This document shows, in pieces, positions 3,383 through 18,813 of a stretch of DNA of 64,000 nt (the stretch's first letter is position 1; every line of letters starts with the position of its first letter). The stretch spans positions 789,857 through 853,856 of the forward strand of contig BOKM01000001.1 of the NCBI GenBank assembly GCA_016860985.1, given 5' to 3'. A program made the translations under genes and the position numbers. The notes beneath the pieces are model-generated. The model had not been told where the DNA came from. It saw only the letters and a list, made by a program, of their open reading frames with translations, and ran no database searches. The stretch is from Patescibacteria group bacterium (GTDB taxonomy: Bacteria > Patescibacteriota > Dojkabacteria > GCA-002793355).

Positions 3383-3697
3383 TTATAATTTTGCTTTGGG
3401 TACGACCTCACTAATTCTCTTCTCATCAAAATATAAATCACGCTCAATCCCTACGCCAAAGTTGCCGCGGTAGCTTTCGAGTTCATCTAGAGAGAAAGAA
3501 CCCCATTCATCGTTCCAATCCCCAAAGATGGAAACGAAGCCGAAAAACTCTCTTGATGCTGGATCGTACTCGGTGGCGTACCACGTACCCGCGCCTGTCG
3601 GGTTGAAGAACTTGGCAACCACTATGGGATCGCTGCTGTCCTCCTGTCTGCCTAGCTTGGCGAATCTGACTAAAAGTTCCTTGGTTAATAGTTTCAT
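3383..3697 (-). CDS. DUF2958 domain protein (family common on plasmids/ICEs, often near anti-restriction genes)
   Basis: MKLLTKELL...DPIVVAKFFNPTGAGTWYATEYDP matches the DUF2958 N-terminal signature. Confidence 0.6.
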   Translation of the reverse strand: MKLLTKELLVRFAKLGRQEDSSDPIVVAKFFNPTGAGTWYATEYDPASREFFGFVSIFGDWNDEWGSFSLDELESYRGNFGVGIERDLYFDEKRISEVVPKAKL

Positions 3698-3742: not shown

Positions 3743-3764
3743 GGGAAGTATGGCCATACTTCCC
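3743..3764. promoter_or_regulatory. 22-bp perfect palindrome GGGAAGTATGG|CCATACTTCCC between divergent genes (operator candidate)
   Basis: Direct reading; lies between the DUF2958 operon start and the 3907 gene. Confidence 0.45.
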
Positions 3765-3906
3765 ATACTTGGGTGATTTTTTAGCGGGGTGAATTTTGCA
3801 AGGGCAAACGAAGTGCAGTTTATTGGAGCGAAGCGGAAACCCTTGCGAAATGAGGGGTAAGACCCCTGAAATTGAATCTATAAGACTTATAGTGTAAAAT
3901 CCCCGC

Positions 3907-5223
3907 ATGGCTAGACCAGAAAGCATTACAGGTTTAATTCCCGGCTTAAACAAGGGTTTTGAGGAGCTTAATGACGCTCAACACGCTTTTGATACTGAGG
4001 CACAACTAGAGCCTGGTAGAATTCTCTGGTTTGATAAGACATATGGTGCAAGCCGAGATGGAAAACGTGCTCGAGCATTACTTCAAGCGGCTACCCTAGA
4101 ACCTGAAACGTTATTCCGCGGTGCCCCCCCCAGTACGTTAATTGAGACAACTTCAACTGGCGCAAGAACAGTAAATATTCCATGGAAAGATTGGGGTGGT
4201 GATGCTTATTTAAATCTCAAGGGTATCGGAGCAATAACTTTTGGACAAACAAAAGAAGCAACAGAGCACTTAAACTGGCAAATCCACAAACGACGCGCAG
4301 TAGGCTGGAATGGCGTTGCAGGTAGAGAAATTGTATCTCAAGCAGATCAAGAAGCCGCTACTTTTCAGCATTTAGTTAAACATAATCCCGAATTAGAATG
4401 GGATATTAATGCACCTATTTGGCGTCCAATAGCTATAGCGGCAGGAAAAGGACATATTGCCGCACTACAAGACCCATATTTCGATACAGGAAAATATGGA
4501 ATAGAGCAATCTGCTGTAAGTGCTCGAAGGCTACCTTATACAAAGCATAGATTGGATGAATATGTGGAGTTTCATAACCCTACTCCCGATTCTTTAGAAG
4601 GACTAAGGAAGCTTGATTCGCTATGGAATCATCAGGACACTTCACATACTTTTATTAGAGCTGCTGAAAGACTTGGTAAAGCGTACAAGATATTTAAGCA
4701 GGCTGACGTGTTTCATATGCAAGCTTTTACACTTGCTAGGTACAAAGAAGGTTCGGCTGCTTGGATGAACTTTAACAACATAGCGATTGACGGGTCTGTT
4801 GGGGATTTAGACTGTGGTCAAAAAGTAGATCCTGAATCTAGCTATGTTTGGTGGCAAATGCGTGAAGCATTTGGTAGTGCTCTTATGTATTTAATGTTCA
4901 CTCACCGAATGAAGCCAAAATTATTAAACGATAAATCTTTCCTAAATAAATTCTTCGCAAGTTGGAGAGAAGGAATAGGAAGTGACTATGTGGAGCAATT
5001 AAAATGGGAATTTGACAACAAAGGAACTTTTGAGGACGTAACCAATGGTATTGAAACATTTGCCCGTTGGTTTAGCTCTCCAGCTGACACGCGCCCCGAT
5101 GGTTCTCGCGATACACTCGGGTGGCAAAATTACTTAGGTCATAAAACAAAAGATATATGGACGGCTTCTGCTAATGAAGTCGTCAAAGCAGTAAGAAAAA
5201 ATCGATCTTCTGTAGGTATTTAG
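3907..5223 (+). CDS. hypothetical protein (438 aa, soluble), noticeably GC-richer than its neighbours
   Basis: Long ORF with no recognised motifs; contains a C8 homopolymer near 4125-4132; followed by a clean rho-independent terminator. Confidence 0.45.
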   Translation: MARPESITGLIPGLNKGFEELNDAQHAFDTEAQLEPGRILWFDKTYGASRDGKRARALLQAATLEPETLFRGAPPSTLIETTSTGARTVNIPWKDWGGDAYLNLKGIGAITFGQTKEATEHLNWQIHKRRAVGWNGVAGREIVSQADQEAATFQHLVKHNPELEWDINAPIWRPIAIAAGKGHIAALQDPYFDTGKYGIEQSAVSARRLPYTKHRLDEYVEFHNPTPDSLEGLRKLDSLWNHQDTSHTFIRAAERLGKAYKIFKQADVFHMQAFTLARYKEGSAAWMNFNNIAIDGSVGDLDCGQKVDPESSYVWWQMREAFGSALMYLMFTHRMKPKLLNDKSFLNKFFASWREGIGSDYVEQLKWEFDNKGTFEDVTNGIETFARWFSSPADTRPDGSRDTLGWQNYLGHKTKDIWTASANEVVKAVRKNRSSVGI

Positions 5224-5304
5224 TATTATCGTGTCGGTCTGACGATCCATCTTCTTGACTTTCCGTCTGGTTAGGATAATAATTCCCTCAAGTTCAACAG
5301 AGCT

Positions 5305-5328
5305 GCCCCTCCGGATAGGGGCTTTTTT
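5305..5328 (+). terminator. rho-independent terminator (GCCCCT-CCGGAT-AGGGGC + T6)
   Basis: 6-bp GC stem, 6-nt loop, TTTTTT run directly after the 3907..5223 stop. Confidence 0.7.
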
Positions 5329-5381
5329 GTAACCAGACCTGCCTAATATTTATAAATTAGTAATTTATATGGAGGTAGGTT

Positions 5382-5717
5382 ATGAATAAAAAGATTATTA
5401 TCTTCTCATCAGTCGCCATTACGGCACTAACTTTTGCTTCACCAGTCTTTGCCGCTTCGGGTGATGTCACCAAAATCGAAACGTTCATTAAGAGTGTCAT
5501 CCAAGTACTCGTAACACTTGCTGGACTAATTTCTGCCGGATTTTTTGTCTGGGGAGGCGTTGGCTACATTACTAGCTCAGGCAACCCAGAAACTCTTGAT
5601 CGCTCCAAAAAAACAATTTTGTATTCAGCTATCGGGCTCGCGGTTGTGCTTGGTGCTTTCGTGCTGACAAATATTGTTTCAGATCTGGCAACTGGAGCAT
5701 TTGGCGCGGCTCAGTAA
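5382..5717 (+). CDS. VirB2/TrbC-like T4SS pilin
   Basis: Signal peptide ending VFA-AS followed by two hydrophobic helices (111 aa), the classic VirB2/TrbC topology; GGAGGT SD; first gene of a compact T4SS operon. Confidence 0.6.
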   Translation: MNKKIIIFSSVAITALTFASPVFAASGDVTKIETFIKSVIQVLVTLAGLISAGFFVWGGVGYITSSGNPETLDRSKKTILYSAIGLAVVLGAFVLTNIVSDLATGAFGAAQ

Positions 5718-5745
5718 GTCGGCCAATATTGGAATATGAACAAAT

Positions 5746-6825
5746 ATGAAATTATTAGTATTGGTAGCAACCATACTCATAGCTCTCTTCACTCCAACGC
5801 TTGCGTATGCTTCAACTAGCGCGCCTACGGAGGTGACAGCGTTTACCAATGACGCACTTTCAATAGTTACACTTATCTCGGCCGCAGCAGCGGTCTTTTT
5901 TTTAATTCGAGGTGGCTATATCTATATTACTTCAAGTGGGAAACCTGATGCACTTGAAGAGGCAAAGAAAACCATTCGCAACTCATTACTTGGGCTTGTT
6001 ATAGTCCTAGCATCGAGCGGATTAATTTCACTTTTGTCTGGTGCGCTCGTAGGGGAAACTGGAAGCACCAATGTCACAACCCTGCCTATTACTCAGATAG
6101 AAAGTGTGGCTCCAAGCGATGGACTCACTCAAGTGCTGATCGATGCAGTCAACGGCTTTATCCAAAACATTGTTGAGAGTTCCACTAAACCAATAGTTGA
6201 TGGCATTATGACTTTTCTTTCAACCACTCCGTCGCTTCTTGAGAATGCTTCAATTGTTAAATTCTGGCTAATCATGCTCGGGATTACCGATACACTGTTT
6301 GTGCTGGTTGTGGCACTTTTAGGCCTTCAGTTTATGAGTGCTTCCACCTTTGGATTTGAAGAGATTGAATTTAAACATTTACTTCCTCGAATTGGGCTAG
6401 CCTTCTTAGGAGCAAATGTTTCGCTATTCTTGGCTGACTATGCCATCAAAGCTAGCAATGCTTTGGTTTCTGGTGTCATTTCCGCTACTGGAGGACTAAA
6501 TCACGCATGGATTAGTAATGCCGTTACTATCTCAAGTATTACTAACGGTACTGCACCATTTATTATCCTAATTTTCCTACTCATATTTTTGATTGTGGCG
6601 ATTGTGCTACTTCTGATGTATATCAGTCGCTTGATTGTGATCTCACTTGGTGCCGTGCTTTCGCCCTTTATTTTTCTCCTATCAGCAATTCCCAAAACTG
6701 CCGATTTTGCCGAAATGGCAGTTAAAGGATATTTCGTTTCAGTTTTTATGATCTTTGTGCATGTGGTCACGATTCAACTGGCTGGTACTTTTTTAACGCT
6801 TCCAGAGCAAACAAATAATTACTGA
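5746..6825 (+). CDS. VirB2-like N-terminal module fused to a VirB6/TrbL-like polytopic membrane domain
   Basis: N-terminal 100 aa repeat the pilin architecture; C-terminal about 250 aa has at least 5 TM helices. The reading frame continues in-frame past the TGA at 6823-6825 for 68 more codons, to 7030. Confidence 0.5.
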   Translation: MKLLVLVATILIALFTPTLAYASTSAPTEVTAFTNDALSIVTLISAAAAVFFLIRGGYIYITSSGKPDALEEAKKTIRNSLLGLVIVLASSGLISLLSGALVGETGSTNVTTLPITQIESVAPSDGLTQVLIDAVNGFIQNIVESSTKPIVDGIMTFLSTTPSLLENASIVKFWLIMLGITDTLFVLVVALLGLQFMSASTFGFEEIEFKHLLPRIGLAFLGANVSLFLADYAIKASNALVSGVISATGGLNHAWISNAVTISSITNGTAPFIILIFLLIFLIVAIVLLLMYISRLIVISLGAVLSPFIFLLSAIPKTADFAEMAVKGYFVSVFMIFVHVVTIQLAGTFLTLPEQTNNY

Positions 6826-7030
6826 TCTCGGTAGCAGTTGCAATTGGGCTTCTTTTAACCCTACTCAAAATCCCTTCATTCATGATGCAGCTCATCTTAT
6901 TCTCCCGTAGTGTTGGAGCAGTTCGCCACGTTGGGAGTCAAATTACCAATGTGCTTAGTACTGATTCAAGCGCCTCAGCATCATCAAAGGCTGCCAGGTC
7001 GGTTACAACGCCCAGAAAGACCGTACATCT

Positions 7031-7504
7031 ATGAGAACTACAATTATTCCAGCACAAATAACGACTGTTGAGGACAAGATCGCCGGATCACTTAACATGA
7101 CCCAAATCTTGATCCTCATGTTTCCGGTTCTTTGGACTGCGCTCATCTACATTTTGTTTGCGCCTGCCATGAAACTTGTACCCTACAAACTAGGACTCAT
7201 TGGTGTTGTGATCATGATCTGCTTGATTCTAGTTATTCGAATAAAAGACAAAATAGTAGCTGAGTGGCTTGGAGTGGTACTCAGGTATCAATTCCGTCCG
7301 AAGTACTGGCTTTATAACAAAAACGATACAACCAATCGCATTATTGATATTCCTGACATCCCAGATATTGCCGTTATTAAAAGAAAAACAACAAAGAAAG
7401 CATCTAGTGATCAAAAGACCGAAATAAATATTTCTGACCTTGTTCGTCTCGAGCAATTAATCGACTCAGGCAAGGTAGCCGTTCGTTATCAAATGAAAAA
7501 TTAA
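7031..7504 (+). CDS. VirB3/PrgI-like small T4SS membrane protein
   Basis: Two N-terminal TM helices then a hydrophilic tail; sits immediately upstream of VirB4, as VirB3 does. Confidence 0.4.
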   Translation: MRTTIIPAQITTVEDKIAGSLNMTQILILMFPVLWTALIYILFAPAMKLVPYKLGLIGVVIMICLILVIRIKDKIVAEWLGVVLRYQFRPKYWLYNKNDTTNRIIDIPDIPDIAVIKRKTTKKASSDQKTEINISDLVRLEQLIDSGKVAVRYQMKN

Positions 7505-7508
7505 AACT

Positions 7509-8126
7509 ATGAGTATTTTTAGCAAATCTAAAAAATCTAGTAGCCGTCAACAAATCCAGATTAAAGAAGTCGTGGATAATATCCTCGTTCTGCCTAATAA
7601 CGAATATCGGCAAATCCTTGAAACTTCATCAGTCAATTTTGAGCTCAAGAGTGAAGAAGAACAGGATGTGATTATCGATAGCTTTCAAAACTTCTTAAAC
7701 TCACTTCCGCGTGAAATCCAAATACTCGTTCGTGTAAGGGAAGTCGATATTGATCGCTACGTCGAAGATATTGGCAAAACTAAAGATAAAGAAACTATTC
7801 CTGCCTACAAAAAGCAGATTGAGGGCTATTGCTCATTCGTTAAAAAACTTGTTTCAGGTAACAAAATCCTTTCGAGGCGTTTCTACATTGTCATTCCTTA
7901 CAAACACACTGAGCGTCATCAGGACATGAAACTCATCAAAGAACACTTGAACCTTGAGAAGGACATTATTATTAAAGGTTTGGAGAGAATGCAGATGAAA
8001 GCCCGAAGCATAACAGGTCTTGAAATTCTCAATTTATTTTATGGCTTCTACAACCCGGAAAGTTTGAAAACTCAGGCAATTACAAAGGAAACTGTCGAAG
8101 CCTTACTAAAAAACAACTATGTTTAA
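7509..8126 (+). CDS. VirB4-family ATPase, N-terminal fragment (split gene)
   Basis: VLPNNEYRQILETSSVNFELKSEEEQDVII resembles the N-terminal region of Gram-positive VirB4/TraE homologues; 205 + 599 aa = full VirB4 length. Confidence 0.5.
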   Translation: MSIFSKSKKSSSRQQIQIKEVVDNILVLPNNEYRQILETSSVNFELKSEEEQDVIIDSFQNFLNSLPREIQILVRVREVDIDRYVEDIGKTKDKETIPAYKKQIEGYCSFVKKLVSGNKILSRRFYIVIPYKHTERHQDMKLIKEHLNLEKDIIIKGLERMQMKARSITGLEILNLFYGFYNPESLKTQAITKETVEALLKNNYV

Positions 8127-9918
8127 TTTAAAGAAAAAAATCACTAGCCTCAAACCAATTAAAGCGTGGCAAAAGAAGCGCAAGCTCAAGGCCATGACAA
8201 ATCAGGCCGTTAAAATTGCTTTTGGCACGCAAGATCAAGTGGATTTAATCTCTTACGCAGGACTCAAAGAAGAGTCTAGCTATTTGCAGATAAACGACCG
8301 ATTCGTCAGAACTATGTTTGTCTCGGGATACCCTTATGTGGCTTCAACTGGTTGGCTTAATAACCTGATTAACTTTAATCATGATATTGATATCAGCTAC
8401 CACATCGAACAAGTTGATCCTTTAACCGCCCTGCCCAAACTGATTAGAAAAATAACTGAACTAGAATCCACAAAGCGCACCATGCTCAAAGAAGGCAAGG
8501 TTATCGGGAGCGAGATTACTGATCCTCTTGAATCTGCTATGGAGCTTAAAGACAAAATCCAGCGGGGCATGGAGAAGCTGTTCCAAATCTCAATCTATAT
8601 GACGATTGGTGCGGAATCACTCATTGAGCTAAATAAAGTCACTAAACTTTTAGAAACTGTCATGCAGACGAGACTCTTCTACATCAAGCCTGCCACTTTT
8701 CAGCAGATCGAAGGCTTGCAGTCCATTCTCCCCAGAGCTGAGAATAAATTAGCTCAAAAACGTAACCTTGATAGCTCAAGCGCTGCCCTTACTTTTCCTT
8801 TCGTCTCATCTGAACTCGTCCAAGAGTCAGGTATTCTCTATGGCATCAACAAATCCAATAACTCACTGGTGATCATCGACCGCTACTCCTTAAATAATGC
8901 TAACTCGATTATTTTTGCACAATCTGGATCGGGTAAAAGTTATACCGCCAAGGTCGAAATCCTCCGCCACCTCATGCAAGGCACCAAAGTCATCATTATC
9001 GACCCTGAGCGCGAATACAAACAGTTGGCGGCCAGTGTTGGTGGAACATATATCAAACTCTCAGCCACTTCCAAAGAGAAAATTAATCCGTTTCAATTTT
9101 CCCAGCACTCGGTAACGCAAGAGAATAATTTATCTGAACACATTCAGGATTTAACCGAGCTCATTTCCCTCATGGTTGGCTCACTCACCTCAGAGGAGCG
9201 GGCATCGGTTGATCGCGCTCTGCTTCTCACCTACAAAGAGGCCAAGTTAACGCCTCGCAAAAATGCCAAAAAACAAAAAGAAGTTGAATATCCACTACTT
9301 AAGGATTTCTACAAAAACCTCAAAGCCATGAAGCATAAGGATTTATGTGACAGACTTGAGAGATTTGTAAAAGGGTCGCTATCAACCGTCTTTGATTCTC
9401 AAACAAATATTCAATTGGATAACCGCCTGATTGTCTTTGACATTAAAGACTTAAACGAATCCATTAGATCAATCATGATGATGGTGGTGGCCAACTTCGT
9501 AAATAATGAGGTTAAACAAAATCCCCAGAAGCGAATGCTCGTTATTGATGAGGGATGGATACTTCTCCAAGAGCCAGAGAGTGCGAGGTTTATCTCTGGA
9601 TTAGTTCGTCGTGCCAGAAAATATTATCTGGGTGTCACGATTACCTCCCAACAAGCCAACGACTTTCTTAACCAAGACTACGGCAAGGCCATTGCTAGTC
9701 AGTCGTCTCTCCGAATCCTGATGCGCCAAGATACGACCACCATCAAAAAAGTGGCTGATGAGTTCCATTTATCTGCATATGAACAACACTATCTGCTAAC
9801 CTGTGATCGGGGTGAGGCTTTAATTATTGCTGATCAAAACCATGTTGCAGTGAAAATTGTGGCCTCAGAGCAAGAGCATCCACTTCTGACTACTGATCCC
9901 CGGGAAGTCTATATCTAG
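8119..9918 (+). CDS. virB4: VirB4/TraE-family T4SS ATPase (C-terminal about 600 aa)
   Basis: GYPYVASTGWLNNL motif, Walker A AQSGSGKSY, Walker B VIDEGW, conserved C-terminal region. Confidence 0.8.
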   Translation: MFNLKKKITSLKPIKAWQKKRKLKAMTNQAVKIAFGTQDQVDLISYAGLKEESSYLQINDRFVRTMFVSGYPYVASTGWLNNLINFNHDIDISYHIEQVDPLTALPKLIRKITELESTKRTMLKEGKVIGSEITDPLESAMELKDKIQRGMEKLFQISIYMTIGAESLIELNKVTKLLETVMQTRLFYIKPATFQQIEGLQSILPRAENKLAQKRNLDSSSAALTFPFVSSELVQESGILYGINKSNNSLVIIDRYSLNNANSIIFAQSGSGKSYTAKVEILRHLMQGTKVIIIDPEREYKQLAASVGGTYIKLSATSKEKINPFQFSQHSVTQENNLSEHIQDLTELISLMVGSLTSEERASVDRALLLTYKEAKLTPRKNAKKQKEVEYPLLKDFYKNLKAMKHKDLCDRLERFVKGSLSTVFDSQTNIQLDNRLIVFDIKDLNESIRSIMMMVVANFVNNEVKQNPQKRMLVIDEGWILLQEPESARFISGLVRRARKYYLGVTITSQQANDFLNQDYGKAIASQSSLRILMRQDTTTIKKVADEFHLSAYEQHYLLTCDRGEALIIADQNHVAVKIVASEQEHPLLTTDPREVYI

Positions 9919-9920
9919 CT

Positions 9921-10535
9921 ATGAATCCAAAGCTAGTACTTACACTCTGGTCGTTTCGCAAAGAACTTAAATTCGTCCTCCTCGCATTCTTCACTATCCT
10001 CATGCTCCCTGTCATTGCGGTCATTCTACTGACTCAGGTGGGTATAAATATAATCTCTGACAAACTCGTAGATCAAAATGCCACAACTCAGGCCATTCAG
10101 ATCAAAGATCCAACCACTGGTGAGGTAGTAACGGAAATAAACCCCACCGTTGTCTGGCCAACTAAAGGGATAATTACTCTGGAATTTGCACAATCGAGTA
10201 TGTATCAGGTCTTTCACACTGGCATTGATCTCGCCAGCAAGCTTGATGAACCAGTGAATCCTGCTATGGACGGCACTGTTATTTACGCGGGAGAGATATT
10301 CTGGGGTTATGGCAAGCACGTCATTATTGACCACGGCAATAATGTGATGACCATCTATGCCCACCTAAACAAGATTTATGTCTTTAAAGGCCAAAAGGTG
10401 ACCACCAGCGACGTAATCGGTGGCCAAGGTCAAACTGGCTGGGCAACGGGAGTGCATCTTCACTTTCAGGTGAATGTATATGGCATACCAGTGAATCCAA
10501 GGGTGTTTTTAGATAATAAAACCGCTGCTAAGTAG
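9921..10535 (+). CDS. M23 (LytM-type) metallopeptidase with N-terminal TM; T4SS-associated cell-wall hydrolase candidate
   Basis: HTGIDLA ... IDHG ... TIYAHL ... GVHLHFQ M23 signature; start 3 nt after the VirB4 stop. Confidence 0.75.
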   Translation: MNPKLVLTLWSFRKELKFVLLAFFTILMLPVIAVILLTQVGINIISDKLVDQNATTQAIQIKDPTTGEVVTEINPTVVWPTKGIITLEFAQSSMYQVFHTGIDLASKLDEPVNPAMDGTVIYAGEIFWGYGKHVIIDHGNNVMTIYAHLNKIYVFKGQKVTTSDVIGGQGQTGWATGVHLHFQVNVYGIPVNPRVFLDNKTAAK

Positions 10536-10594
10536 AAGCATTTTATTTCGTAACGTACTATAATGATTAAGTACGAATTAGTATCAAAAGTACC

Positions 10595-10777
10595 ATGGTC
10601 ATGGAAGAACTATTAACATTAAAAGAGGCTGCAAATGTCCTCAAAGTACACCCAAACACCTTGAGGGATTGGGATAAAAAAGGGATACTTAAAGCTGTTC
10701 GGATTGGTATCAAAAAAAGCTTAAGATACCGAAAAGAAGATATAGAAAAATTTATTAGTCACAAAAACGGTAAATAA
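10595..10777 (+). CDS. small HTH DNA-binding protein (excisionase/MerR-like HTH_17)
   Basis: LTLKEAANVLKVHPNTLRDWDKKGILKAVRIG is a typical HTH_17 pattern; first gene of the RM operon. Confidence 0.55.
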   Translation: MVMEELLTLKEAANVLKVHPNTLRDWDKKGILKAVRIGIKKSLRYRKEDIEKFISHKNGK

Positions 10778-10779
10778 CT

Positions 10780-12363
10780 ATGACAAATAACAATCAAAAC
10801 ACTACTAAAGAGCAAGAGCGAGCCGAGCTTCACCGAGCCATTTGGCAAATCGCCAATGACTTACGCGGTAGTGTGGATGGTTGGGATTTCAAATCTTACG
10901 TGTTAGGAATGCTTTTTTATCGTTTCATTAGTGAAAACTTGACTAGCTATATCAATGCCGATGAACGACGATCTGGTAAAAAAGATTTTGATTATGCCAA
11001 ACTAACAGATAAAGAGGCAGAATTTGGAAGAACGGACACGGTAAAAGAAAAAGGCTTCTATATCTTGCCGAGCGAACTGTTTATTAACGTTTGCAAAAAT
11101 GCCAGAAATGACAAAAATCTTAACGAAACTCTATCAAAAGTTTTTACCAACATTGAAAACTCTGCAAAGGGATCAGTAAGTGAAGATGATCTTAAAGGTT
11201 TATTTGCCGATTTGGACGTTAATTCTAGCAAGCTTGGAAACACCGTAGAGCATCGCAATCAAAAACTAGTGAAGATTGTTGAGGCTATTGGTAATCTTCG
11301 CCTTGGTAATTACTCTGACAATACAATCGATGCTTTCGGTGATGCCTATGAGTTCTTAATGACCATGTACGCCTCTAACGCAGGTAAATCTGGAGGAGAA
11401 TTCTATACTCCTCAGGAAGTTAGTGAATTACTCGCGGAGATTACTACTGTTGGCAAGAAAGAAGTTAACAAGGTGTACGACCCTGCCTGTGGATCTGGCT
11501 CGCTCCTTCTAAAATTTGCGAAAGTTTTGGGAAGAGAAAATGTTCGTCAAGGTTTCTTTGGTCAAGAAATTAATCTCACTACCTACAATCTTTGTCGTAT
11601 CAACATGTTTCTACACGACATTAACTACAACAATTTTGACGTAGCTCTTGGCGACACACTTATTGATCCTAAACATTGGGATGATGAGCCATTCGATGCG
11701 ATTGTTTCCAATCCTCCCTATTCGATTAGATGGGAAGGTGATGCTAATCCACTTCTGATCAATGATCCTAGATTCTCACCTGCTGGAGTTTTGGCACCAA
11801 AGAGTAAGGCTGACTTGGCCTTTACAATGCATATGCTTTCGTGGCTTTCTACTAGTGGCACGGCTGCAATAGTCGAATTTCCCGGCGTTCTTTATCGAGG
11901 CGGTGCAGAACAGAAAATTAGAAAGTATTTAATTGACAACAACTATGTGGATACAGTGATTCAACTTCCACCAGATTTATTTTTTGGTACGACTATTGCC
12001 ACCTGTATTATCGTGCTAAAGAAAAGCAAAAAAGATAACAAAATTCTATTCATTGATGCATCGGCCGAGTTTGTTCGTAATGGTAATAAAAATAAATTAA
12101 GTGAAACAAATAGACTCAAAATCTTAGAAGCTTTTACATCTCGATCTGATGCAGAGTATTTCGCCAAGCTAGTTGATAGTAAAGATATCGCAATTAATGA
12201 TTACAACATTGCTGTATCAAGTTATGTAACTGCAGAGGACACTCGTGAAGAAATAAACATCACCGAGCTAAATGCAAAGATTAGCCAAATAGTGTCTAGA
12301 CAATCTGAGTTAAGAAAAGCGATCGATGAAATTGTTGAGGATATTGAAGGTGAAAACACATGA
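10780..12363 (+). CDS. hsdM: Type I restriction-modification N6-adenine DNA methyltransferase subunit HsdM
   Basis: GEFYTPQEV motif, SGS AdoMet motif, NPPY catalytic motif (SNPPYSIRW). Confidence 0.9.
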   Translation: MTNNNQNTTKEQERAELHRAIWQIANDLRGSVDGWDFKSYVLGMLFYRFISENLTSYINADERRSGKKDFDYAKLTDKEAEFGRTDTVKEKGFYILPSELFINVCKNARNDKNLNETLSKVFTNIENSAKGSVSEDDLKGLFADLDVNSSKLGNTVEHRNQKLVKIVEAIGNLRLGNYSDNTIDAFGDAYEFLMTMYASNAGKSGGEFYTPQEVSELLAEITTVGKKEVNKVYDPACGSGSLLLKFAKVLGRENVRQGFFGQEINLTTYNLCRINMFLHDINYNNFDVALGDTLIDPKHWDDEPFDAIVSNPPYSIRWEGDANPLLINDPRFSPAGVLAPKSKADLAFTMHMLSWLSTSGTAAIVEFPGVLYRGGAEQKIRKYLIDNNYVDTVIQLPPDLFFGTTIATCIIVLKKSKKDNKILFIDASAEFVRNGNKNKLSETNRLKILEAFTSRSDAEYFAKLVDSKDIAINDYNIAVSSYVTAEDTREEINITELNAKISQIVSRQSELRKAIDEIVEDIEGENT

Positions 12364-14561
12364 CGGACTTAAAGTTAGACATAAAATTAGAAAATTGTTA
12401 TGGGATTAAGAAGCTTGATCATAAGTTTGATTTTTCAAAATGTCATACCTTTGTAATTTATGCTCCAAACGGTGTGATGAAAACATCCTTTGCAAACACT
12501 TTTAAAGACCTTGCCAGTGCCAAAGTACCCTGTGATCGCATCGACGATTCTCTAACACCGATTTGTGAGGTTTTAGATTGTAGTCAAAATACACAGCCTC
12601 AACCTGAATCAATTTGTGTTATTGAACCATATAACGAGAAAGCATTTGACTCTGAGGGGAAGGTGCTTACACTTCTGGCTAACGAAGAAGTTAGAAAAGA
12701 ATATCTTGGTATCTATTCAGAGTTAGATAAGGAAAAACAGTCATTAATTAAAACTCTTAAAAAAGTTTCAAAAAGTAATAACTGTGAGGCGGAATTAGTT
12801 TCGACTTTCTCAACAAGCAAGGAAAACATTTTTGAAGTTTTACTTAAAATAGTAGATGATTCGCGAAAGTCTACAGAAAAATATGATTTCAAATATAACG
12901 TAGTTTTCGACCCGGCAGGAAAAGTTAAGGATTTTCTAAATGAAAATAAAGAACTTTTTACCCAATACTGTGATAAGTACAATGATTTAATCAGTCATTC
13001 TGACTTTTTCGCCAAAAGTGGCGAAACTGTTTTTGGTACATCGGAGGCAAAAAGTCTTAGTGACTCAGTAAAAGGCAACGAGTTCTTTTCTGCTGGACAC
13101 GGATTAAATATAAAAAAATACGGTAGCATTGGTGACAATAAACGATTCAACGAGATAGTAGACGAAGAAATACAGAAGATATTTAACGATAAAGACCTAA
13201 AAGGTATTTTTGACAAAGTTGAGAAAAAGCTTAATGCAAATCAAACCCTTTCCGACTTCAAAAAATTGATAGAGAAAAATCCGGCACTTGTAGTGAAGCT
13301 TGCAGATTACGAACAGTTTAGGAAAGATGCATGGTTCAGCTTTCTCGGTCAAATTATTAATGAGTTGGATAAATTAGTTGCTTTATACATTAGTAAAAAA
13401 ACAGAGATTGAAGATCTTATTAAAAAGGCGAATGAACAACAGTCGAAGTGGGAGGATGCCATTCAAGAATTCAGCGATCGATTCTTCAATATGCCATTTT
13501 CCCTGAGCATAGAAAATAAATCAGACGCAATTCTGAACACACAAACACCAACAATCTCCTTTAAATTTAAAGGGAAGCCCGTCGACAGAAAGAAGATGAT
13601 TGACGTTTTGAGTCAAGGTGAAAAAAGGGCGTTTTATATATTAAATGTGATTTTTGAAGTTAAGTCACGCCAACTTAGTGGTACAAAAACGCTATTTATT
13701 ATCGATGATATAGCAGATTCATTCGACTACAAGAATAAATACGCTATCGTAGAGTATTTGCATGATATTTCCAGAGATCCAAACTTTTACTCTATAGTGA
13801 TGACCCATAACTTTGATCTGTTTCGGACACTTCAATCCCGAGTGTTACAAAATAATAAATGGACTAATTCGCTCATAGCTGAAAAGGTGGCTGATGAGAT
13901 TCGTTTAGTTGATGCTGGAAGTAAAAATATTACTGATCCTTTCTCTTTGTGGAAAAGGGACGTTCACAGTAACGAAAAATACCTTATTGCTTCGATTCCT
14001 TTTGTTCGCAATTTAATCGAATATAAAGATAGTCAAAATATCAGCTATCGTCTATTAACTCACGCACTTCACCAAAAAATGGCAGACCCCGTAAATAGTA
14101 TTAAAGCAACAGACGATATTTCTATAAGTGACTTGGAGCCTATTTTTTTAAGTGTTTTGTCAATCTCGCCTTTTACATATACAGACACATCTAAAAAAAT
14201 TATTGATATTATCGACAAATTGACTACAGATATTGTCAGTGCAGCAGACTCGGATTCAATAGTACTTGAGGATAAAATAATTCTGGCAATTGGATCTAGA
14301 TTGAAAGCTGAAAAATATATGTGGTCTAAGGTAACAGATCAGTCTGAAATTTCTGGAAATCAAACAGGATTATTATTTCGAAGATTTAAAGATGAATTTG
14401 CTAGTGACCAAAGCTACAAAGACAAAATTCGAATACTTGAAAATGTCAACATTATGACTCCAGAAAACATACACCTGAACTCTTTTATGTACGAGCCGAT
14501 CTTAGATATGTCGATAGACGAGTTAAAGCATTTATATGGTGAGGTCAGTAAATTAAATTAA
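12360..14561 (+). CDS. ABC/SMC-type ATPase with degenerate Walker A and long coiled-coil insert (PrrC/RloC- or OLD/PARIS-like topology), embedded in the Type I RM operon
   Basis: N-terminus LDIKLENCYGIKKLDHKFDFSKCHTFVIYAPNGVMKTS parallels the SbcC/Rad50/OLD N-terminus (GPNGSGKST replaced by APNGVMKTS); about 300 aa coiled-coil; ABC signature-like LSQGEKRAF; Walker B LFIIDDI; H-loop-like THN; about 250-aa C-terminal domain of unknown function; start overlaps the hsdM stop (ATGA). Confidence 0.5.
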   Translation: MTDLKLDIKLENCYGIKKLDHKFDFSKCHTFVIYAPNGVMKTSFANTFKDLASAKVPCDRIDDSLTPICEVLDCSQNTQPQPESICVIEPYNEKAFDSEGKVLTLLANEEVRKEYLGIYSELDKEKQSLIKTLKKVSKSNNCEAELVSTFSTSKENIFEVLLKIVDDSRKSTEKYDFKYNVVFDPAGKVKDFLNENKELFTQYCDKYNDLISHSDFFAKSGETVFGTSEAKSLSDSVKGNEFFSAGHGLNIKKYGSIGDNKRFNEIVDEEIQKIFNDKDLKGIFDKVEKKLNANQTLSDFKKLIEKNPALVVKLADYEQFRKDAWFSFLGQIINELDKLVALYISKKTEIEDLIKKANEQQSKWEDAIQEFSDRFFNMPFSLSIENKSDAILNTQTPTISFKFKGKPVDRKKMIDVLSQGEKRAFYILNVIFEVKSRQLSGTKTLFIIDDIADSFDYKNKYAIVEYLHDISRDPNFYSIVMTHNFDLFRTLQSRVLQNNKWTNSLIAEKVADEIRLVDAGSKNITDPFSLWKRDVHSNEKYLIASIPFVRNLIEYKDSQNISYRLLTHALHQKMADPVNSIKATDDISISDLEPIFLSVLSISPFTYTDTSKKIIDIIDKLTTDIVSAADSDSIVLEDKIILAIGSRLKAEKYMWSKVTDQSEISGNQTGLLFRRFKDEFASDQSYKDKIRILENVNIMTPENIHLNSFMYEPILDMSIDELKHLYGEVSKLN

Positions 14562-14567
14562 GCAAAT

Positions 14568-15764
14568 ATGACTAAGCATCAAAGCAGAATAGACCAATTA
14601 ATCACAGAGCTCTGTCGAAATGGCGTGGAATTTAAAGAGTTAGGTGAATTAGGTTATTTTTATGGAGGTCTAACAGGAAAAAGCAAAGAAGATTTTAGTA
14701 ACGGTACGTCAAAATATGTTTCCTATATGAATGTGTATTCAAACATATCTGTAAATATCGAGATTGAGGACTTTGTAAAACTAAATTCCGATGAAAAACA
14801 GAATGCAATTGAATATGGTGATATTTTATTCACTGGTTCATCTGAAACCCCTGATGAATGTGGAATGTCTTCCGTACTGACGACAAAATTATCAGAACCG
14901 TTATATCTAAACAGTTTTTGTTTTGGTTTTCGACTTAACGATGTATCTTTATTTAATCCTGAATTTCTCAAACATCTTTTTAGAGGCAATTATGTCAGAA
15001 AACAGATTGCTAATACCGCAAGTGGCGTTACACGATTTAATGTATCAAAAAAACGTTTTGCAAAAATAAAAATTCCTGTTCCACCACTTGAAATCCAAGA
15101 TGAAATTGTAAATATTCTTAATAAGTTTACAGAGCTAGAATCAGAGCTAGAATCAGAGCTAGAAGCGAGAGTAGAACAGTATGAGTACTATAGAGAAAAT
15201 CTGCTGGATTATAATGCCAATGTTGAACATAAAACTCTTGGTGATTCTTTTTCTATGTTAGCGGGCCATTTCATTTCGGCGAACAATATATCAAATAATC
15301 AAGATGATATTAATCAATATCCCTGCTTCGGTGGCAACGGATTTCGTGGTTATGTGAGCAAAAAAAGTCATGAAGGGAGATATGTGTTGATTGGTAGGCA
15401 GGGTGCTCTTTGTGGGAATACAAAACGTGTTGATGGCAAATTTTATGCGACTGAGCACGCAATTGTGGTTACTCCTAAAAACGACATAGATATTAATTGG
15501 GCATTTCATATGCTGACATATATGAATCTCAACAAATATGCATCAAAATCAGCTCAGCCAGGTCTCGCTGTTGGAAATCTTGAAAAAGTAATGATTAAAG
15601 TACCAAAATTGAGTGAGCAAAGAAGAATTGCGTCAATACTGGATAAATTTGATTCTCTAGTTAATGACATTACAATCGGCCTACCAGCCGAACTTAATGC
15701 CAGACATCAACAATACGAGTATTATCGAAATAAATTGCTAACATTTAAAGAATATGTCGGATAA
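14568..15764 (+). CDS. hsdS: Type I RM specificity subunit HsdS (two target-recognition domains)
   Basis: Two TRDs separated by central conserved helix (LESELESELEARVEQYEYYRENLL) and C-terminal repeat of the same helix (ARHQQYEYYRNKLL). Confidence 0.85.
   Translation: MTKHQSRIDQLITELCRNGVEFKELGELGYFYGGLTGKSKEDFSNGTSKYVSYMNVYSNISVNIEIEDFVKLNSDEKQNAIEYGDILFTGSSETPDECGMSSVLTTKLSEPLYLNSFCFGFRLNDVSLFNPEFLKHLFRGNYVRKQIANTASGVTRFNVSKKRFAKIKIPVPPLEIQDEIVNILNKFTELESELESELEARVEQYEYYRENLLDYNANVEHKTLGDSFSMLAGHFISANNISNNQDDINQYPCFGGNGFRGYVSKKSHEGRYVLIGRQGALCGNTKRVDGKFYATEHAIVVTPKNDIDINWAFHMLTYMNLNKYASKSAQPGLAVGNLEKVMIKVPKLSEQRRIASILDKFDSLVNDITIGLPAELNARHQQYEYYRNKLLTFKEYVG
15132..15167 (+). repeat. 12-bp tandem repeat (GAGCTAGAATCA x2 plus one imperfect copy) inside the hsdS central conserved region
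   Basis: Direct reading; encodes (ELES)2-ELEA. Confidence 0.8.
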
Positions 15765-18700
15765 CAAACATACATACTACAACATGGTCGCGCAAGGCTC
15801 AGAGAGCACTGTGGTGGCTGAATATACTCGAGATGCAAATATGGTACGCGACGTTGGCTACCAAAGTGAGAATGATCTTGAGCAAACATTCATTAAACAA
15901 CTTCAATCTCAGGCATACGAATACGTTTCTATAAAATCCGAAGCAGATTTAATAGCAAATCTTAGACGACAACTAGAGAAGCTTAATAACTATTCCTTCA
16001 GTGATGGTGAGTGGGAAAAGTTTTTCGTTAGCACACTAGCTAACCCTAATCAAAGCATTGTCGAAAAAACCATCACTATTCAAGAAGATTACATTAAGAA
16101 CCTCACTCGCGATGATGGATCAATCAAGAACATTTATCTCATCAAAAAAGACAATATTCACGATAATTTTTTGCAGGTTATTAATCAGTATGCGACTGAG
16201 GATGGGCAACGCTCTAACCGTTACGATGTCACTGTCTTAGTCAATGGCCTCCCATTGGTTCATATTGAACTAAAACGCCGTGGAGTCGCCATTCAGGAAG
16301 CTTTCAACCAGATAAATAGGTATAACCGTGAGAGTTTTTGGGCTTCATCTGGACTCTTCGAATATGTGCAGATTTTTATCATCTCAAACGGTACTCATAC
16401 CAAGTACTACAGCAACACTACCCGCGCCCAGCATGTAAAAGATTCTAGTGAGGGTTCAGCCAAAGTAGGTAAGCGAACCAGTAACAGCTTTGAATTTACG
16501 AGTTGGTGGGCAGATGCTACTAATCGCCCAATTACCGATCTAATGGACTTTGCCAAAACCTTTTTTGCCAAACACACCATTCTCAATATCCTGACTCGCT
16601 ACTGTGTATTTACCACCGATAAGTTGCTTTTGGTGATGCGCCCATACCAAATTGTGGCTACTGAAAGGATTCTAAATAGGATCGAGGTCAGTACCAATTA
16701 TAAAAAAATGGGAACTGTCGAGGCTGGCGGATATATCTGGCATACCACTGGATCAGGAAAAACACTTACCAGCTTTAAAACCGCCCAGTTAGTCAGCAAG
16801 CTTATTGATATTGAAAAAGTAATCTTTGTGGTAGATCGTAAAGATCTGGACTATCAGACCATGCGTGAGTACGACAAATTTGAGAAAGGGGCGGCTAACA
16901 GCAATACCAGCACCGCGATTCTTACGAAACAACTAAGTGATCCAAATGCTCGAATCATAGTCACTACAATCCAGAAACTTGATCGATTTATTAGTCGCAA
17001 TGGTCAGCATGCTATTTTTGATGGTCATGTAGTGCTCATTTTTGACGAATGTCATCGTTCTCAATTTGGCGATATGCATGCCGCCATAACCAAAGCATTC
17101 AATAATTATCACCTGTTTGGATTTACCGGCACGCCAATCTTTGCCATCAACTCTTCATCAGGAGGTCGTCCCGACTTTAAAACCACAGAGCAAGCGTTTG
17201 GTGAAAAGCTTCACACCTACACCATAGTCGATGCTATTGCAGATAAGAATGTTTTACCGTTTAAAGTTGACTACATTTCTACGGTTCGTGAAGCCGAGGA
17301 TATTGAAGATAAAAAAGTGAATGATATCGACCGCGAAGCTATCCTCTCAGCGCCTGAGCGAATATCAAATATTGTCAAATACATTCGTGAACATTTCGAT
17401 CAAAAAACGAAGAGAAATAGTTACTACAAAATAAAAGATCGTCGCCTGGCAGGATTTAACTCAATATTTGCAGTTGCTTCCATTGATGTCGCTAAGAAAT
17501 ATTATTCGGAGTTTAAGAAGCAATTAGAAGGTCTCCCAAGCGACAAACAACTCAAAGTAGCCACTATTTATAGTTTTGGTGTGAACGATGAAGATCTTGA
17601 TGGAATGATCGATGAGAACTCAGAAGATACTGCAGGCCTTGATGTGAGCTCACGCGATTTTTTGGAGAGCGCAATTTCCGACTACAACAGGATGTTTGGG
17701 ACTTCCTACGATACCTCATCCGACAAGTTCCAAAACTACTACAAAGATGTGAGTGAGCGAGTTAAAAACCGAGAAATAGATATCTTGATTGTGGTAAACA
17801 TGTTTTTAACAGGATTTGATGCAACTACGCTCAATACACTTTGGGTCGATAAGAATTTGAGGCTACATGGTCTTCTTCAAGCTTTCTCCCGCACCAATCG
17901 AATACTTAACAGCGTAAAAACGTTCGGTAATATTGTGTGCTTCCGCAACCTAGAAAAGGCTACCAATGAGTCGATCGCCTTGTTTGGTGATAAAGAAGCC
18001 AGTGGTATCGTGTTATTGAAAGCTTATGACGACTACTATCACGGATATAAGGATGGAGATAAGGAAGTCCGTGGCTATGAAAGCTTAGTTAAGGAATTAC
18101 TAGAGAGATTCCCTGTTGGTGAGCGAATACTCGGAGAACAGAACCAAAAAGATTTCGTAAAGTTATATGGAGCAATTTTGCGAGTCCGTAATATATTGTC
18201 TACCTTTGACGAATTTGCTGGTAACGAAATACTAAGCGATCGCGACGTACAGGATTATCACAGTGCCTATATCGATATTTACAATGAATTCCGTAAGTCT
18301 AAAAAAGAAGAAAAGGAAAATGTTAATGAAGATGTAATTTTTGAAATGGAGCTTATCAAGCAAGTCGATATAAATATCGACTATATTCTTGGATTGATTA
18401 AGAAATATCATGAGGATCACACTAAGAACAAAGAATTATTGCTCGATATTAACAAGGCAATTGATTCAAGCGTTGAGCTTCGTAACAAGAAAGATTTAAT
18501 CAACCAGTTTATTGCCTCATTGGATATTCATTCGGTCGTTGATGATGATTGGCAAAAATTTATTGAAGGCAAGAAGGTTGAAGAACTCGAGTCCATAATT
18601 GAATCAGAAGGATTGGATCACGATGCAACATACACCTTTATCAAAAACGCATTCCGTAATGGAAACGTAACAACAACTGGTACTGCAATTACAAATATTT

Positions 18701-18813
18701 TACCTCCTGTATCCCGCTTTTCCCCGACTGGTGAGCGAACAAAAAAGCGTGAGAGTGTGATTGATAAATTGACTAGATTTTTTGAAAGATTTTTCAACAT
18801 ATCTAGTTCTTAA
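15754..18813 (+). CDS. hsdR: Type I RM restriction subunit HsdR (SF2 helicase/endonuclease)
   Basis: Walker A TGSGKT, DECH box (IFDECHRSQFG), helicase C-terminal motifs, 1019 aa; start overlaps the hsdS end. Confidence 0.9.
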   Translation: MSDNKHTYYNMVAQGSESTVVAEYTRDANMVRDVGYQSENDLEQTFIKQLQSQAYEYVSIKSEADLIANLRRQLEKLNNYSFSDGEWEKFFVSTLANPNQSIVEKTITIQEDYIKNLTRDDGSIKNIYLIKKDNIHDNFLQVINQYATEDGQRSNRYDVTVLVNGLPLVHIELKRRGVAIQEAFNQINRYNRESFWASSGLFEYVQIFIISNGTHTKYYSNTTRAQHVKDSSEGSAKVGKRTSNSFEFTSWWADATNRPITDLMDFAKTFFAKHTILNILTRYCVFTTDKLLLVMRPYQIVATERILNRIEVSTNYKKMGTVEAGGYIWHTTGSGKTLTSFKTAQLVSKLIDIEKVIFVVDRKDLDYQTMREYDKFEKGAANSNTSTAILTKQLSDPNARIIVTTIQKLDRFISRNGQHAIFDGHVVLIFDECHRSQFGDMHAAITKAFNNYHLFGFTGTPIFAINSSSGGRPDFKTTEQAFGEKLHTYTIVDAIADKNVLPFKVDYISTVREAEDIEDKKVNDIDREAILSAPERISNIVKYIREHFDQKTKRNSYYKIKDRRLAGFNSIFAVASIDVAKKYYSEFKKQLEGLPSDKQLKVATIYSFGVNDEDLDGMIDENSEDTAGLDVSSRDFLESAISDYNRMFGTSYDTSSDKFQNYYKDVSERVKNREIDILIVVNMFLTGFDATTLNTLWVDKNLRLHGLLQAFSRTNRILNSVKTFGNIVCFRNLEKATNESIALFGDKEASGIVLLKAYDDYYHGYKDGDKEVRGYESLVKELLERFPVGERILGEQNQKDFVKLYGAILRVRNILSTFDEFAGNEILSDRDVQDYHSAYIDIYNEFRKSKKEEKENVNEDVIFEMELIKQVDINIDYILGLIKKYHEDHTKNKELLLDINKAIDSSVELRNKKDLINQFIASLDIHSVVDDDWQKFIEGKKVEELESIIESEGLDHDATYTFIKNAFRNGNVTTTGTAITNILPPVSRFSPTGERTKKRESVIDKLTRFFERFFNISSS

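Follow-up and report, generated by a model that had tools for sequence, protein, structure and literature searches.

A naturally split VirB4 probably encoded by two overlapping genes in a type IV secretion cassette of Patescibacteria

Background

In the plasmids pSK41 and pGO1 of Staphylococcus aureus (MPF_FATA, pGO1 subclass), a homologue of the VirB4 N-terminus of about 200 aa precedes a VirB4-like ATPase without that segment. Specifically, trsD of pSK41 (25886-26569, 227 aa) lies directly upstream of the VirB4-like trsE (26584-28602, 672 aa), and the same operon has genes for a VirB2-like protein (CagC) and a cell-wall hydrolase. According to the available part of a recent survey (PMC12102498, Microb Genom 2025), TrsD leads the type IV secretion components of Patescibacteria in abundance, with 1,664 copies adjoining virB4; it is described there as "remotely homologous to the N-terminal portion of VirB4" and is assigned no function. 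The same text mentions copies away from virB4 in Gracilibacteria, and a copy that is essential in Ca. Southlakia epibionticum, the sole Patescibacteria species tested genetically. The gene cluster that it describes, including the essential one of Ca. Southlakia epibionticum ML1, comprises TrsD, VirB4, PrgI/VirB3, VirB6 and VirB2-like pilins, with trsD and virB4 adjacent. By this account, the two-gene form is a normal, conserved and already published feature of Patescibacteria type IV secretion. We did not find pointed out, in the available part of that text, an exact complementarity with a shortened VirB4 or a conserved 8-nt overlap of the two genes.

Elsewhere, both parts reside on a single chain, as in the VirB4 proteins of monoderms (CD1110 family, NF045971; Mbov_0397 family, NF045975) and in TrwK/VirB4 of R388 (PDB 7o42, 7o43, 8rtb, 8rtd), which comes from a diderm system. 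In some MPF_T systems VirB3 and VirB4 are themselves fused, which shows that the VirB3/VirB4 module has evolutionarily fluid domain boundaries (PMC4027160). However, these fusions are the opposite of the event considered here, probably a fission, and the PrgI gene and the gene for the VirB4 N-terminal piece are separate at the locus that we describe.

Results

We analysed a window of 64,000 nucleotides from a Patescibacteria genome (contig BOKM01000001.1, positions 789,857 to 853,856), which harbors a chromosomal type IV secretion cassette with the following features:

5382..5717, + strand: gene for a VirB2-like pilin of type IV secretion, 111 aa, which opens the conserved cassette (T4SS_pilin PF18895, E 1.8e-10; TrbC/VirB2, E 1.9e-8)
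5746..6825, + strand: second protein with a pilin domain, 359 aa, its C-terminal part long and hydrophobic (Pfam T4SS_pilin, E 2.4e-9, residues 29-97)
7031..7504, + strand: PrgI/VirB3-like small membrane protein, 157 aa (Pfam PrgI PF12666, E 5.6e-5, 24 bits, just below the 27-bit cut-off)
7509..8126, + strand: ORF1, TrsD-like, a separate polypeptide of 205 aa equivalent to the initial ~175 residues of the N-terminal domain of VirB4 (NCBIfam matches, fold, dN/dS)
8108..8113, + strand: A6 run in CTAAAAAACAAC, within the Lys-Asn codons AAA AAC; an incidental feature
8119..8126, + strand: 8-nt start/stop overlap ATGTTTAA, with the ATG of ORF2 inside the final codons of ORF1; proposed translational-coupling junction
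8119..9918, + strand: ORF2, VirB4 ATPase without the first N-terminal subdomain, 599 aa (NF045971, Pfam, Walker motifs, dN/dS)
9921..10535, + strand: M23 peptidase, 204 aa, last gene of the cassette (Pfam Peptidase_M23, E 6e-29; same position in the syntenic locus L082)

The gene order of the cassette is identical in L082, and the block that can be aligned to orthologous loci spans 5242-10520, ending at about 10510-10520. The product of 5746..6825 is possibly VirB6/TrbL-like, and its counterpart in L082 has a weak TrbL_3 match. The place of the PrgI-like gene, immediately before the VirB4 pieces, is conserved, for instance in L082, and the M23 peptidase is probably the cell-wall hydrolase of the system. 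A tRNA scan of the window returned no tRNA genes. Nothing substantive distinguishes this cassette from the cluster described in the available part of PMC12102498, of which it is a further example. It likewise resembles the pSK41 operon in its VirB2-like and cell-wall hydrolase genes; however, that operon sits on a conjugative plasmid, which has a relaxase and a coupling protein.

The sequence-only reading had described ORFs of 205 and 599 aa overlapping by 8 nt, and the coordinates that we re-derived from the window sequence agree with this. Relative to ORF1, ORF2 is read in the +1 frame, and its ATG at 8119 stands 5 nt before the ORF1 stop codon (TAA, 8124-8126) within the shared ATGTTTAA. 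In silico, deletion of one A joins the two frames, as that reading had stated, into an open frame of 803 aa (...VEALLKTTMFNLKKK...). By eye, no Shine-Dalgarno-like motif is evident upstream of 8119. Short overlaps of adjacent genes (-4, -8, -11, -14) are common across the window.

By profile alignment, ORF1 and ORF2 are colinear with and complementary to the single-chain VirB4 proteins, which upholds the reading of the two ORFs as one VirB4. ORF1 covers positions 3-174 (E 4.6e-12) and ORF2 positions 181-733 of the 752-position model of CD1110-type VirB4 (NCBIfam NF045971), so that the whole model is covered and the chain is broken between positions 174 and 181. ORF2 scores 361.7 bits against this equivalog model, above its cut-off of 325. 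It consists of a Lys-rich N-terminal linker, the remaining N-terminal domain and a P-loop ATPase domain. Residues 256-565 match Pfam P-loop_TraG (E 2.8e-24), AAA_10 (E 3.9e-17) and DUF87, the ATPase domain also matches VirB4/TraC models, and the translation contains the Walker A motif AQSGSGKS and, from residue 473, the Walker B motif MLVIDE. As expected of a VirB4, the pair is flanked by type IV secretion genes (two T4SS_pilin genes, the PrgI-like gene and the M23 peptidase gene). However, the N-terminal and ATPase domains are not found on one chain of ~750-830 aa, the first ~175 model positions being on ORF1 in the other frame.

ORF1 also matches positions 98-287 of the 894-position VirB4_plasma model (NCBIfam) and positions 12-200 of the 201-position TrsD/TraD model (NCBIfam NF041427; E 6.5e-7). 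Since its 29.4 bits are far under the curated cut-off of 200 bits of NF041427, and since it is only 24% identical to TrsD of pSK41 (E 6e-9), the kinship with staphylococcal TrsD is remote. As far as these scores go, ORF1 is a remote homologue and no member of the family by the NCBI criterion, and we call it TrsD-like. It resembles the TrsD family in being encoded on its own, as a protein of ~200 aa that is homologous to the N-terminus of VirB4, and in the place of its gene, immediately before that of a VirB4-like ATPase starting at the corresponding point. The alignments place the split between ORF1 and ORF2 where TrsD and TrsE of pSK41 are split: TrsE and ORF2 begin at the same alignment position, residue 14 of ORF2 aligning with residue 2 of TrsE, and both starts are Lys-rich. 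On the other hand, identity between the two pairs is only 24-26%, and the pSK41 genes are 14 nt apart whereas ORF1 and ORF2 overlap by 8 nt.

An AF2 model of ORF1 (pLDDT 86, pTM 0.72), built on an alignment without pSK41 TrsD, had R388 TrwK/VirB4 as all of its top 14 matches in the PDB (probability 1.00, E 1.6e-4 to 3e-3). The TM-scores are 0.4-0.57 at a sequence identity of 12-15%. This likeness to VirB4 in the PDB was detected solely by fold comparison; when the sequence profile of the ORF1 family was compared with PDB sequences, only chance matches came up (ribosomal protein S6, E ~0.1). A local Pfam scan of ORF1 was blank even at E<=10, whereas PF26593 (TraC-like) stands in the precomputed annotation of all the best 120 homologues listed; it is graded "weak" there for two fusion proteins treated below (P0196 and P0125). 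Many ORF1 homologues carry long Pro/Gln-rich tails, which are absent from VirB4.

We assembled 80 orthologous loci from Patescibacteria MAGs of many classes, 78 of which harbor both genes, with an ORF2 identity of 70-99%. An intact, separate ORF1 lies upstream of ORF2 in 75 of these 78 loci, with ORF2 in the +1 frame in 74 of the 75, and not one of the 78 has a fused ORF1-ORF2. The split is also common to loci in which ORF1 is merely 52-60% identical. The sequence-only reading had named a comparison of orthologous loci as a check, and the same two-ORF arrangement is what this comparison found. In 65 of the 77 orthologous pairs, the ORF2 frame has an ATG that precedes the stop codon of ORF1 by 5 nt (ATGNNTRR). 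In 11 of the remaining 12 the start codon lies within about 35 nt of the stop codon, as TAAtATG in L057/58, as ATGA in L071 and as overlaps of 11-35 nt in the rest; the twelfth (L080) has the 8-nt overlap too and was dropped by the matching filter. A downstream start that overlaps or abuts the upstream stop, as in coupled gene pairs, is accordingly conserved in nearly all 77 pairs.

Beyond these loci, no ORF2-like part was present in 148 of the top 150 representative clusters of ORF1 homologues at 50% identity, the other two being fused. In the 734-aa fused protein P0196, residues 1-187 align with ORF1 (33% identity) and residues 199-732 with ORF2 (53% identity), and the linker is about 11 residues, compared with about 50 in ORF1/ORF2. 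Its gene order is that of the window, and it is encoded on a 728-kb contig that is probably circular (the record name ends in '_c'). The second fused Patescibacteria relative, P0257, has 736 aa.

Both ORFs are under strong purifying selection: at a dS of 0.6-1.3, dN/dS is 0.015-0.037 for ORF1 and 0.009-0.021 for ORF2. Since pN/pS is 0.03 in codons 4-40 of ORF2, its translation starts at or near 8119. As for the origin of the cassette, the protein identity of 97-99% across MAGs of different class labels had raised the idea of a very recent horizontal transfer, which the dS of 0.6-1.3 rules out. Such values mean well-diverged DNA, and the high protein identity therefore reflects very strong purifying selection; an older transfer of the cassette is possible.

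Discussion

The sequence-only reading had left open whether the two ORFs are a natural two-piece VirB4, a site of programmed frameshifting, a sequencing or assembly indel, or a recent pseudogene. With an intact split in 75 of 78 loci and none fused, the first is what our analysis bears out: VirB4 is, with high confidence, naturally and anciently split into two adjacent genes, the TrsD-like ORF1 and the ATPase ORF2. We also lean, with less assurance, towards a particular history, in which an ancient fission at a domain linker was inherited by both the pGO1/pSK41 subclass and the Patescibacteria system, was occasionally reversed by re-fusion (P0196, P0257), and is held in place by the conserved 8-nt termination/re-initiation overlap.

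The pair is probably translationally coupled. ORF1 and ORF2 would be translated from one operon mRNA, and a ribosome terminating at the TAA of 8124-8126 would re-initiate at the ATG at 8119, 5 nt upstream, which would yield the two polypeptides in roughly equimolar amounts. These may then associate non-covalently and rebuild a VirB4-like ATPase, which could dock on the product of the preceding gene, the PrgI/VirB3-like membrane protein. One singleton metagenome contig of 1.5 kb, which we used as a lead only, encodes a PrgI-TrsD fusion (P0125), and a fusion of this kind would suggest that PrgI and TrsD interact. The A6 run has no part in the proposed mechanism.

The alternative that fares best, though we consider it improbable, is that ORF1 is an independent accessory protein, such as a regulator or adaptor, which merely resembles the VirB4 N-terminus and stands outside the ATPase function. 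In its favour are the Pro/Gln-rich tails of many homologues, and the available part of PMC12102498 treats TrsD as a separate component with copies away from virB4 in Gracilibacteria. However, ORF1 supplies exactly the segment that is missing from ORF2, natural single-chain relatives join both parts colinearly, and in nearly all loci the two genes adjoin and overlap.

Very unlikely is that programmed +1 frameshifting or transcriptional slippage makes some fused VirB4 besides or instead of the two pieces, either at the A6 run or, in the manner of prfB, at the GUU_UAA codon pair of the ORF1 stop. Such a shift is formally possible at AAA_A and at GUU_UAA: the ORF2 frame has a stop codon at 8107-8109, leaving a 14-nt stretch (8110-8123) in which a +1 shift gives the fusion, and the +1 frame relation is retained in most loci. 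However, A6 occurs in the 20 nt before the ATG in only 4 of the 65 orthologous junctions with the ATGNNTRR arrangement, the commonest longest A run there being 2. Since the codon before the ORF1 stop varies among seven codons (GTT 46, GCT 11, GTC 3, GTA 2, and also GCG, GCC and GCA), there is no conserved shift-prone P-site codon either. The geometry, moreover, differs in 11 of the 77 loci, including a junction without overlap (TAAtATG) and the ATGA overlap in the +2 frame (L071), and pSK41 has a 14-nt spacer and a +2 frame. Across the orthologues, we thus found no conserved shift-prone motif, whether prfB-like or for slippage, at the frame junction. What is retained instead is the ATG, as re-initiation predicts. 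An A6 run is also shorter than the runs usually required for efficient transcriptional slippage. Since runs of at least 6 bases number 91 for A and 64 for T in the window (GC 40.5%), the presence of A6 at 8108-8113 is no more than expected by chance, and the emphasis of the sequence-only reading on this homopolymer was misplaced. A minor fused isoform through a +1 shift at GUU_UAA has accordingly hardly any support.

We give next to no credence to an assembly indel, by which the true genome would have A5 or another 1-nt difference and encode a single VirB4 of ~803 aa. Removal of one A does fuse the frames, some platforms are error-prone at homopolymers, and two of the 78 loci (L009 and L078) have a further frameshift within ORF1, so some MAGs do contain errors or decayed genes. 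However, all the best 120 ORF1 homologues listed, from independent NCBI, JGI, ENA and Logan assemblies, are without exception 205 aa long; one of them is 100% identical, occurs on two contigs and is present in both NCBI and Logan. In the 75 loci with separate intact ORFs, moreover, the junction is mostly without a homopolymer, and each ORF shows conservation in its own frame, ORF1 in the five residues from A6 to the stop (...KNNYV*) and ORF2 at its N-terminus.

A recent pseudogenising frameshift of a once-intact VirB4 in the present lineage is just as implausible: single-chain fused relatives are known, but the dN/dS of ORF1 is nowhere near 1, the split is no sporadic, lineage-specific disruption but common to Patescibacteria classes, to loci with 52-60% ORF1 identity and, at the same position, to TrsD/TrsE of pSK41, the ATPase motifs of ORF2 are intact, and the TrsD homologue of Ca. 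Southlakia epibionticum is, in the available part of PMC12102498, essential.

Conclusions

A natural split of VirB4 into ORF1 and ORF2 bears mainly on annotation, in that neither pipelines nor human readers should flag this junction as a frameshift, a pseudogene or a recoding site, and the 205-aa "hypothetical protein" encoded upstream can be named as TrsD-like and as the N-terminal piece of VirB4. If the fission reading is true, TrsD, which is officially listed as "function unknown", would be the subdomain through which VirB4 docks on VirB3. The biology of type IV secretion gains a modest clarification: TrsD makes most sense as an ATPase subdomain that has become detached, which bears on the anchoring of the ATPase to the membrane complex in these epibiotic bacteria.

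The two open reading frames encode one VirB4

We re-read the junction between the upstream TrsD-like piece (ORF1) and the downstream VirB4 ATPase piece (ORF2), and found the coordinates, the overlap and the run of six A residues (A6) to be as the sequence-only reading had described them:

7509-8126: ORF1, 205 aa, stop codon TAA at 8124-8126
8108-8113: A6 run, ORF1 codons AAA AAC
8119-9918: ORF2, 599 aa; its frame is +1 to that of ORF1
8119-8121: ATG of ORF2, located 5 nt 5' of the ORF1 stop; the resulting 8-nt overlap is ATGTTTAA

The ORF2 frame has a TAA at 8107-8109, which would confine any frame change that could join the two proteins to 8110-8123; removal of one A had been said to fuse them, and its deletion in silico indeed gave an open frame of 803 aa.

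That ORF1 and ORF2 jointly make up a single VirB4, as claimed, is upheld by their placement on NCBIfam models, by Pfam domains and by the fold of ORF1. On the NCBIfam CD1110-type VirB4 model (752 positions), ORF1 covers 3-174 and ORF2 181-733, and ORF2 alone scores 361.7 bits against a curated cut-off of 325; ORF1 additionally matches the VirB4_plasma and VirB4_CagE models in their N-terminal parts. The P-loop ATPase domain (Pfam P-loop_TraG, AAA_10 and DUF87) lies on ORF2 residues 256-565, with the Walker A motif AQSGSGKS, read from the translation, and the Walker B motif MLVIDE. Using 37 diverse homologues as input, AlphaFold2 confidently modelled ORF1 (pLDDT 86, pTM 0.72) as an autonomously folding alpha/beta domain, whose best 14 PDB matches are all TrwK/VirB4 chains of plasmid R388 (probability 1.00, E 1.6e-4 to 3e-3); structures 8rtb and 8rtd are among the matches. 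The neighbourhood, by Pfam, fits a type IV secretion operon: a PrgI/VirB3-like gene lies directly 5' of the pair, an M23 peptidase gene directly 3', and there are two genes for VirB2-like pilins.

The split is conserved and both pieces are under selection

With ORF1 as query, 1,953 matches were obtained among 5.8 billion proteins; the best 120 are all exactly 205 aa long, with 95-100% identity, and stem from assemblies of NCBI, JGI, ENA and Logan. Scanning one genome per species, we found 80 loci with ORF2 relatives (70-99% identity), the majority labelled as Patescibacteria (CPR) of many classes, including Collier-, Gottesman-, Shapiro-, Davies-, Levy-, Roizman- and Woykebacteria, WWE3 and Saccharibacteria, although many of the 80 labels are evidently wrong (e.g. 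Pseudomonadales). Both genes were found in 78 loci, none of them fused. In 75 of these an intact, separate ORF1 lies directly 5' of ORF2; 74 have ORF2 in the +1 frame, and one has the +2 frame with an overlap of 4 nt. Among the 77 pairs in which the ORF1 end is complete, 65 have the ATG 5 nt 5' of the ORF1 stop, and in 11 of the other 12 start and stop are still near each other (TAAtATG in L057/58, ATGA in L071, and 11-35 nt of overlap in the others); the remaining one, L080, has the 8-nt overlap too and had been left out by the matching filter. The comparison of orthologous loci proposed as a check thus came out for the two-ORF layout, and a sequencing or assembly indel in the window is not borne out, given the uniform homologues from four sources. 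In two of the 78 loci an extra frameshift interrupts the ORF1 homologue, for which tblastn gives two segments in differing frames (L009, about 3750-3820; L078, about 3650-3690); this reflects either assembly errors in metagenome-assembled genomes or real decay in those lineages.

A pseudogenising frameshift fares no better. Against six close orthologues, whose synonymous divergence already reaches 0.6-1.3, dN/dS is 0.015-0.037 for ORF1 and 0.013-0.021 for ORF2 (0.021 for a seventh, L011, compared for ORF2 only), and we therefore rejected decay of either piece. Over the 40 codons with which ORF2 begins, immediately past the overlap, pN/pS is 0.03, which indicates translation in the ORF2 frame and makes 8119 a credible start.

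A slippery site for programmed frameshifting would require a conserved signal, and A6 occurs within 20 nt before the ATG in only 4 of the 65 junctions, where the commonest longest A run is 2 (23/65). The codon preceding the ORF1 stop also varies (GTT, GCT, GTC, GTA, GCG, GCC, GCA), so there is no conserved prfB-like shift-prone P-site codon, and this reading was rejected. Runs of at least 6 bases number 91 for A and 64 for T in the window (40.5% GC), so an A6 encoding Lys-Asn is nothing unusual, and the run at 8108-8113 is incidental. Wherever the ATG of an orthologous junction is off its usual position a start codon is near by, as re-initiation, not recoding, would predict.

The same division is known from Staphylococcus plasmid pSK41, where trsD (227 aa) lies 14 nt 5' of the VirB4-like trsE (672 aa). 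ORF1 aligns with pSK41 TrsD (E 6e-9, 24% identity) and ORF2 residue 14 pairs with TrsE residue 2 (E 2e-41), both proteins having a Lys-rich start, which places the split at the same point; ORF1 also matches positions 12-200 of the 201 of the NCBIfam TrsD/TraD model (E 6.5e-7, far under the cut-off). A Patescibacteria survey (PMC12102498) reports 2,272 TrsD homologues, 1,664 of them adjoining virB4, gives that of Ca. Southlakia epibionticum ML1 as listed essential, and describes TrsD as having no assigned function; the two-gene TrsD/VirB4 layout is therefore an already published feature of these genomes. A natural two-piece VirB4 is the only one of the four readings offered that is supported.

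Fused relatives and a proposed mechanism

Among 1.84 billion cluster representatives ORF1 has 2,057 matches, and only two of the best 150 carry an ORF2-like part, P0196 (734 aa) and P0257 (736 aa). P0196 aligns through residues 1-187 with ORF1 (33% identity) and through 199-732 with ORF2 (53%), with a linker of ~11 residues versus ~50 in the split form. It is encoded at 4001-6205 of locus L082, on a 728-kb contig that is probably circular, its record name ending in '_c', and the gene order is that of the window (pilin, pilin/TrbL-like, PrgI, VirB4, M23 peptidase); single-chain and two-chain forms thus both exist in this secretion-system lineage, a coexistence that supports the two pieces working as one protein. 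An 801-aa coupling-protein-like ATPase lies 3' of the M23 peptidase in L082; none was found among the scanned ORFs of the window.

In another protein, P0125 (357 aa; L083 322-1395), the N-terminus is PrgI/VirB3-like, with 38% identity to window 7031-7504, and is fused to a TrsD-like domain that has 49% identity to ORF1. This singleton from one 1.5-kb metagenome contig could be genuine or an artefact of assembly; it hints at contact between PrgI and TrsD, though its attestation is too weak for it to serve as evidence. Many of the standalone TrsD-like proteins, 260-490 aa long (P0161, P0171, P0175, P0258, P0260 and about 30 other representatives) bear a long, Pro/Gln/Thr-rich, low-complexity C-terminal tail beyond the ~200-aa domain, in the place of the linker to the remaining VirB4.

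ORF1 and ORF2 complement each other, are conserved and under selection, and lie tightly apposed. On the operon mRNA, termination at the TAA (8124-8126) would be followed by re-initiation at ATG 8119, that is, translational coupling, which agrees with the frequent -4, -8, -11 and -14 gene overlaps in the window and with the sequence ahead of 8119, where inspection by eye showed no Shine-Dalgarno-like motif. The ORF1 domain would then bind the remaining VirB4 N-terminal domain in ORF2, and also the PrgI/VirB3-like membrane protein, a proposal that follows the established anchoring of VirB4 to the membrane by VirB3 (stated in PMC12102498; R388 structures 8rtb and 8rtd).

Boundaries of the cassette and its surroundings

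The sole block aligning to the orthologous loci (66-87% nucleotide identity) is window 5242-10520 (~5.3 kb), which starts a little 5' of the first pilin gene, stops where the M23 peptidase gene ends, and has sharp, recurrent edges; in almost every locus the flanking 4 kb are unrelated. In the closest loci the cassette proteins are 97-99% identical despite dS of about 1 (dN/dS 0.01-0.04). Either the cassette is under exceptional constraint and has moved repeatedly, or Patescibacteria lineages have exchanged it. Around it lie:

1318-2091, + strand: 257-aa ORF, Pfam Replic_Relax PF13814 (E 1.8e-13, above cut-off), ~3 kb 5' of the cassette
3907-5223, + strand: 438-aa ORF immediately 5' of the cassette
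10595-18813, + strand: HTH_17/MerR-type gene, then a type I restriction-modification system
10780-12363, + strand: type I methylase subunit
12360-14561, + strand: 733-aa gene between the methylase and specificity genes, weak SMC_N match only
14568-15764, + strand: type I specificity subunit
15754-18813, + strand: type I restriction subunit
23374-24435, - strand: 353-aa class II (D/K/N-type) aminoacyl-tRNA synthetase homologue, catalytic core only
39042-40529, - strand: 495-aa homologue of the same class and type, with OB anticodon-binding domain

The 438-aa ORF has no Pfam match, and only L024 shows DNA similarity across its gene (window 4124-7326). Downstream, the cassette is adjoined by the HTH_17/MerR-type gene (60 aa, excisionase-like), and DUF2130 and HARE-HTH/PD-(D/E)XK genes follow the type I system; L013 has part of this region in common (5276-12350), and most loci do not. 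As it consists of the catalytic core alone, the 353-aa synthetase homologue may be a paralogue with another role. Since most Patescibacteria type IV secretion clusters are without a relaxase, according to PMC12102498, the relaxase-family gene near the cassette may be of interest.
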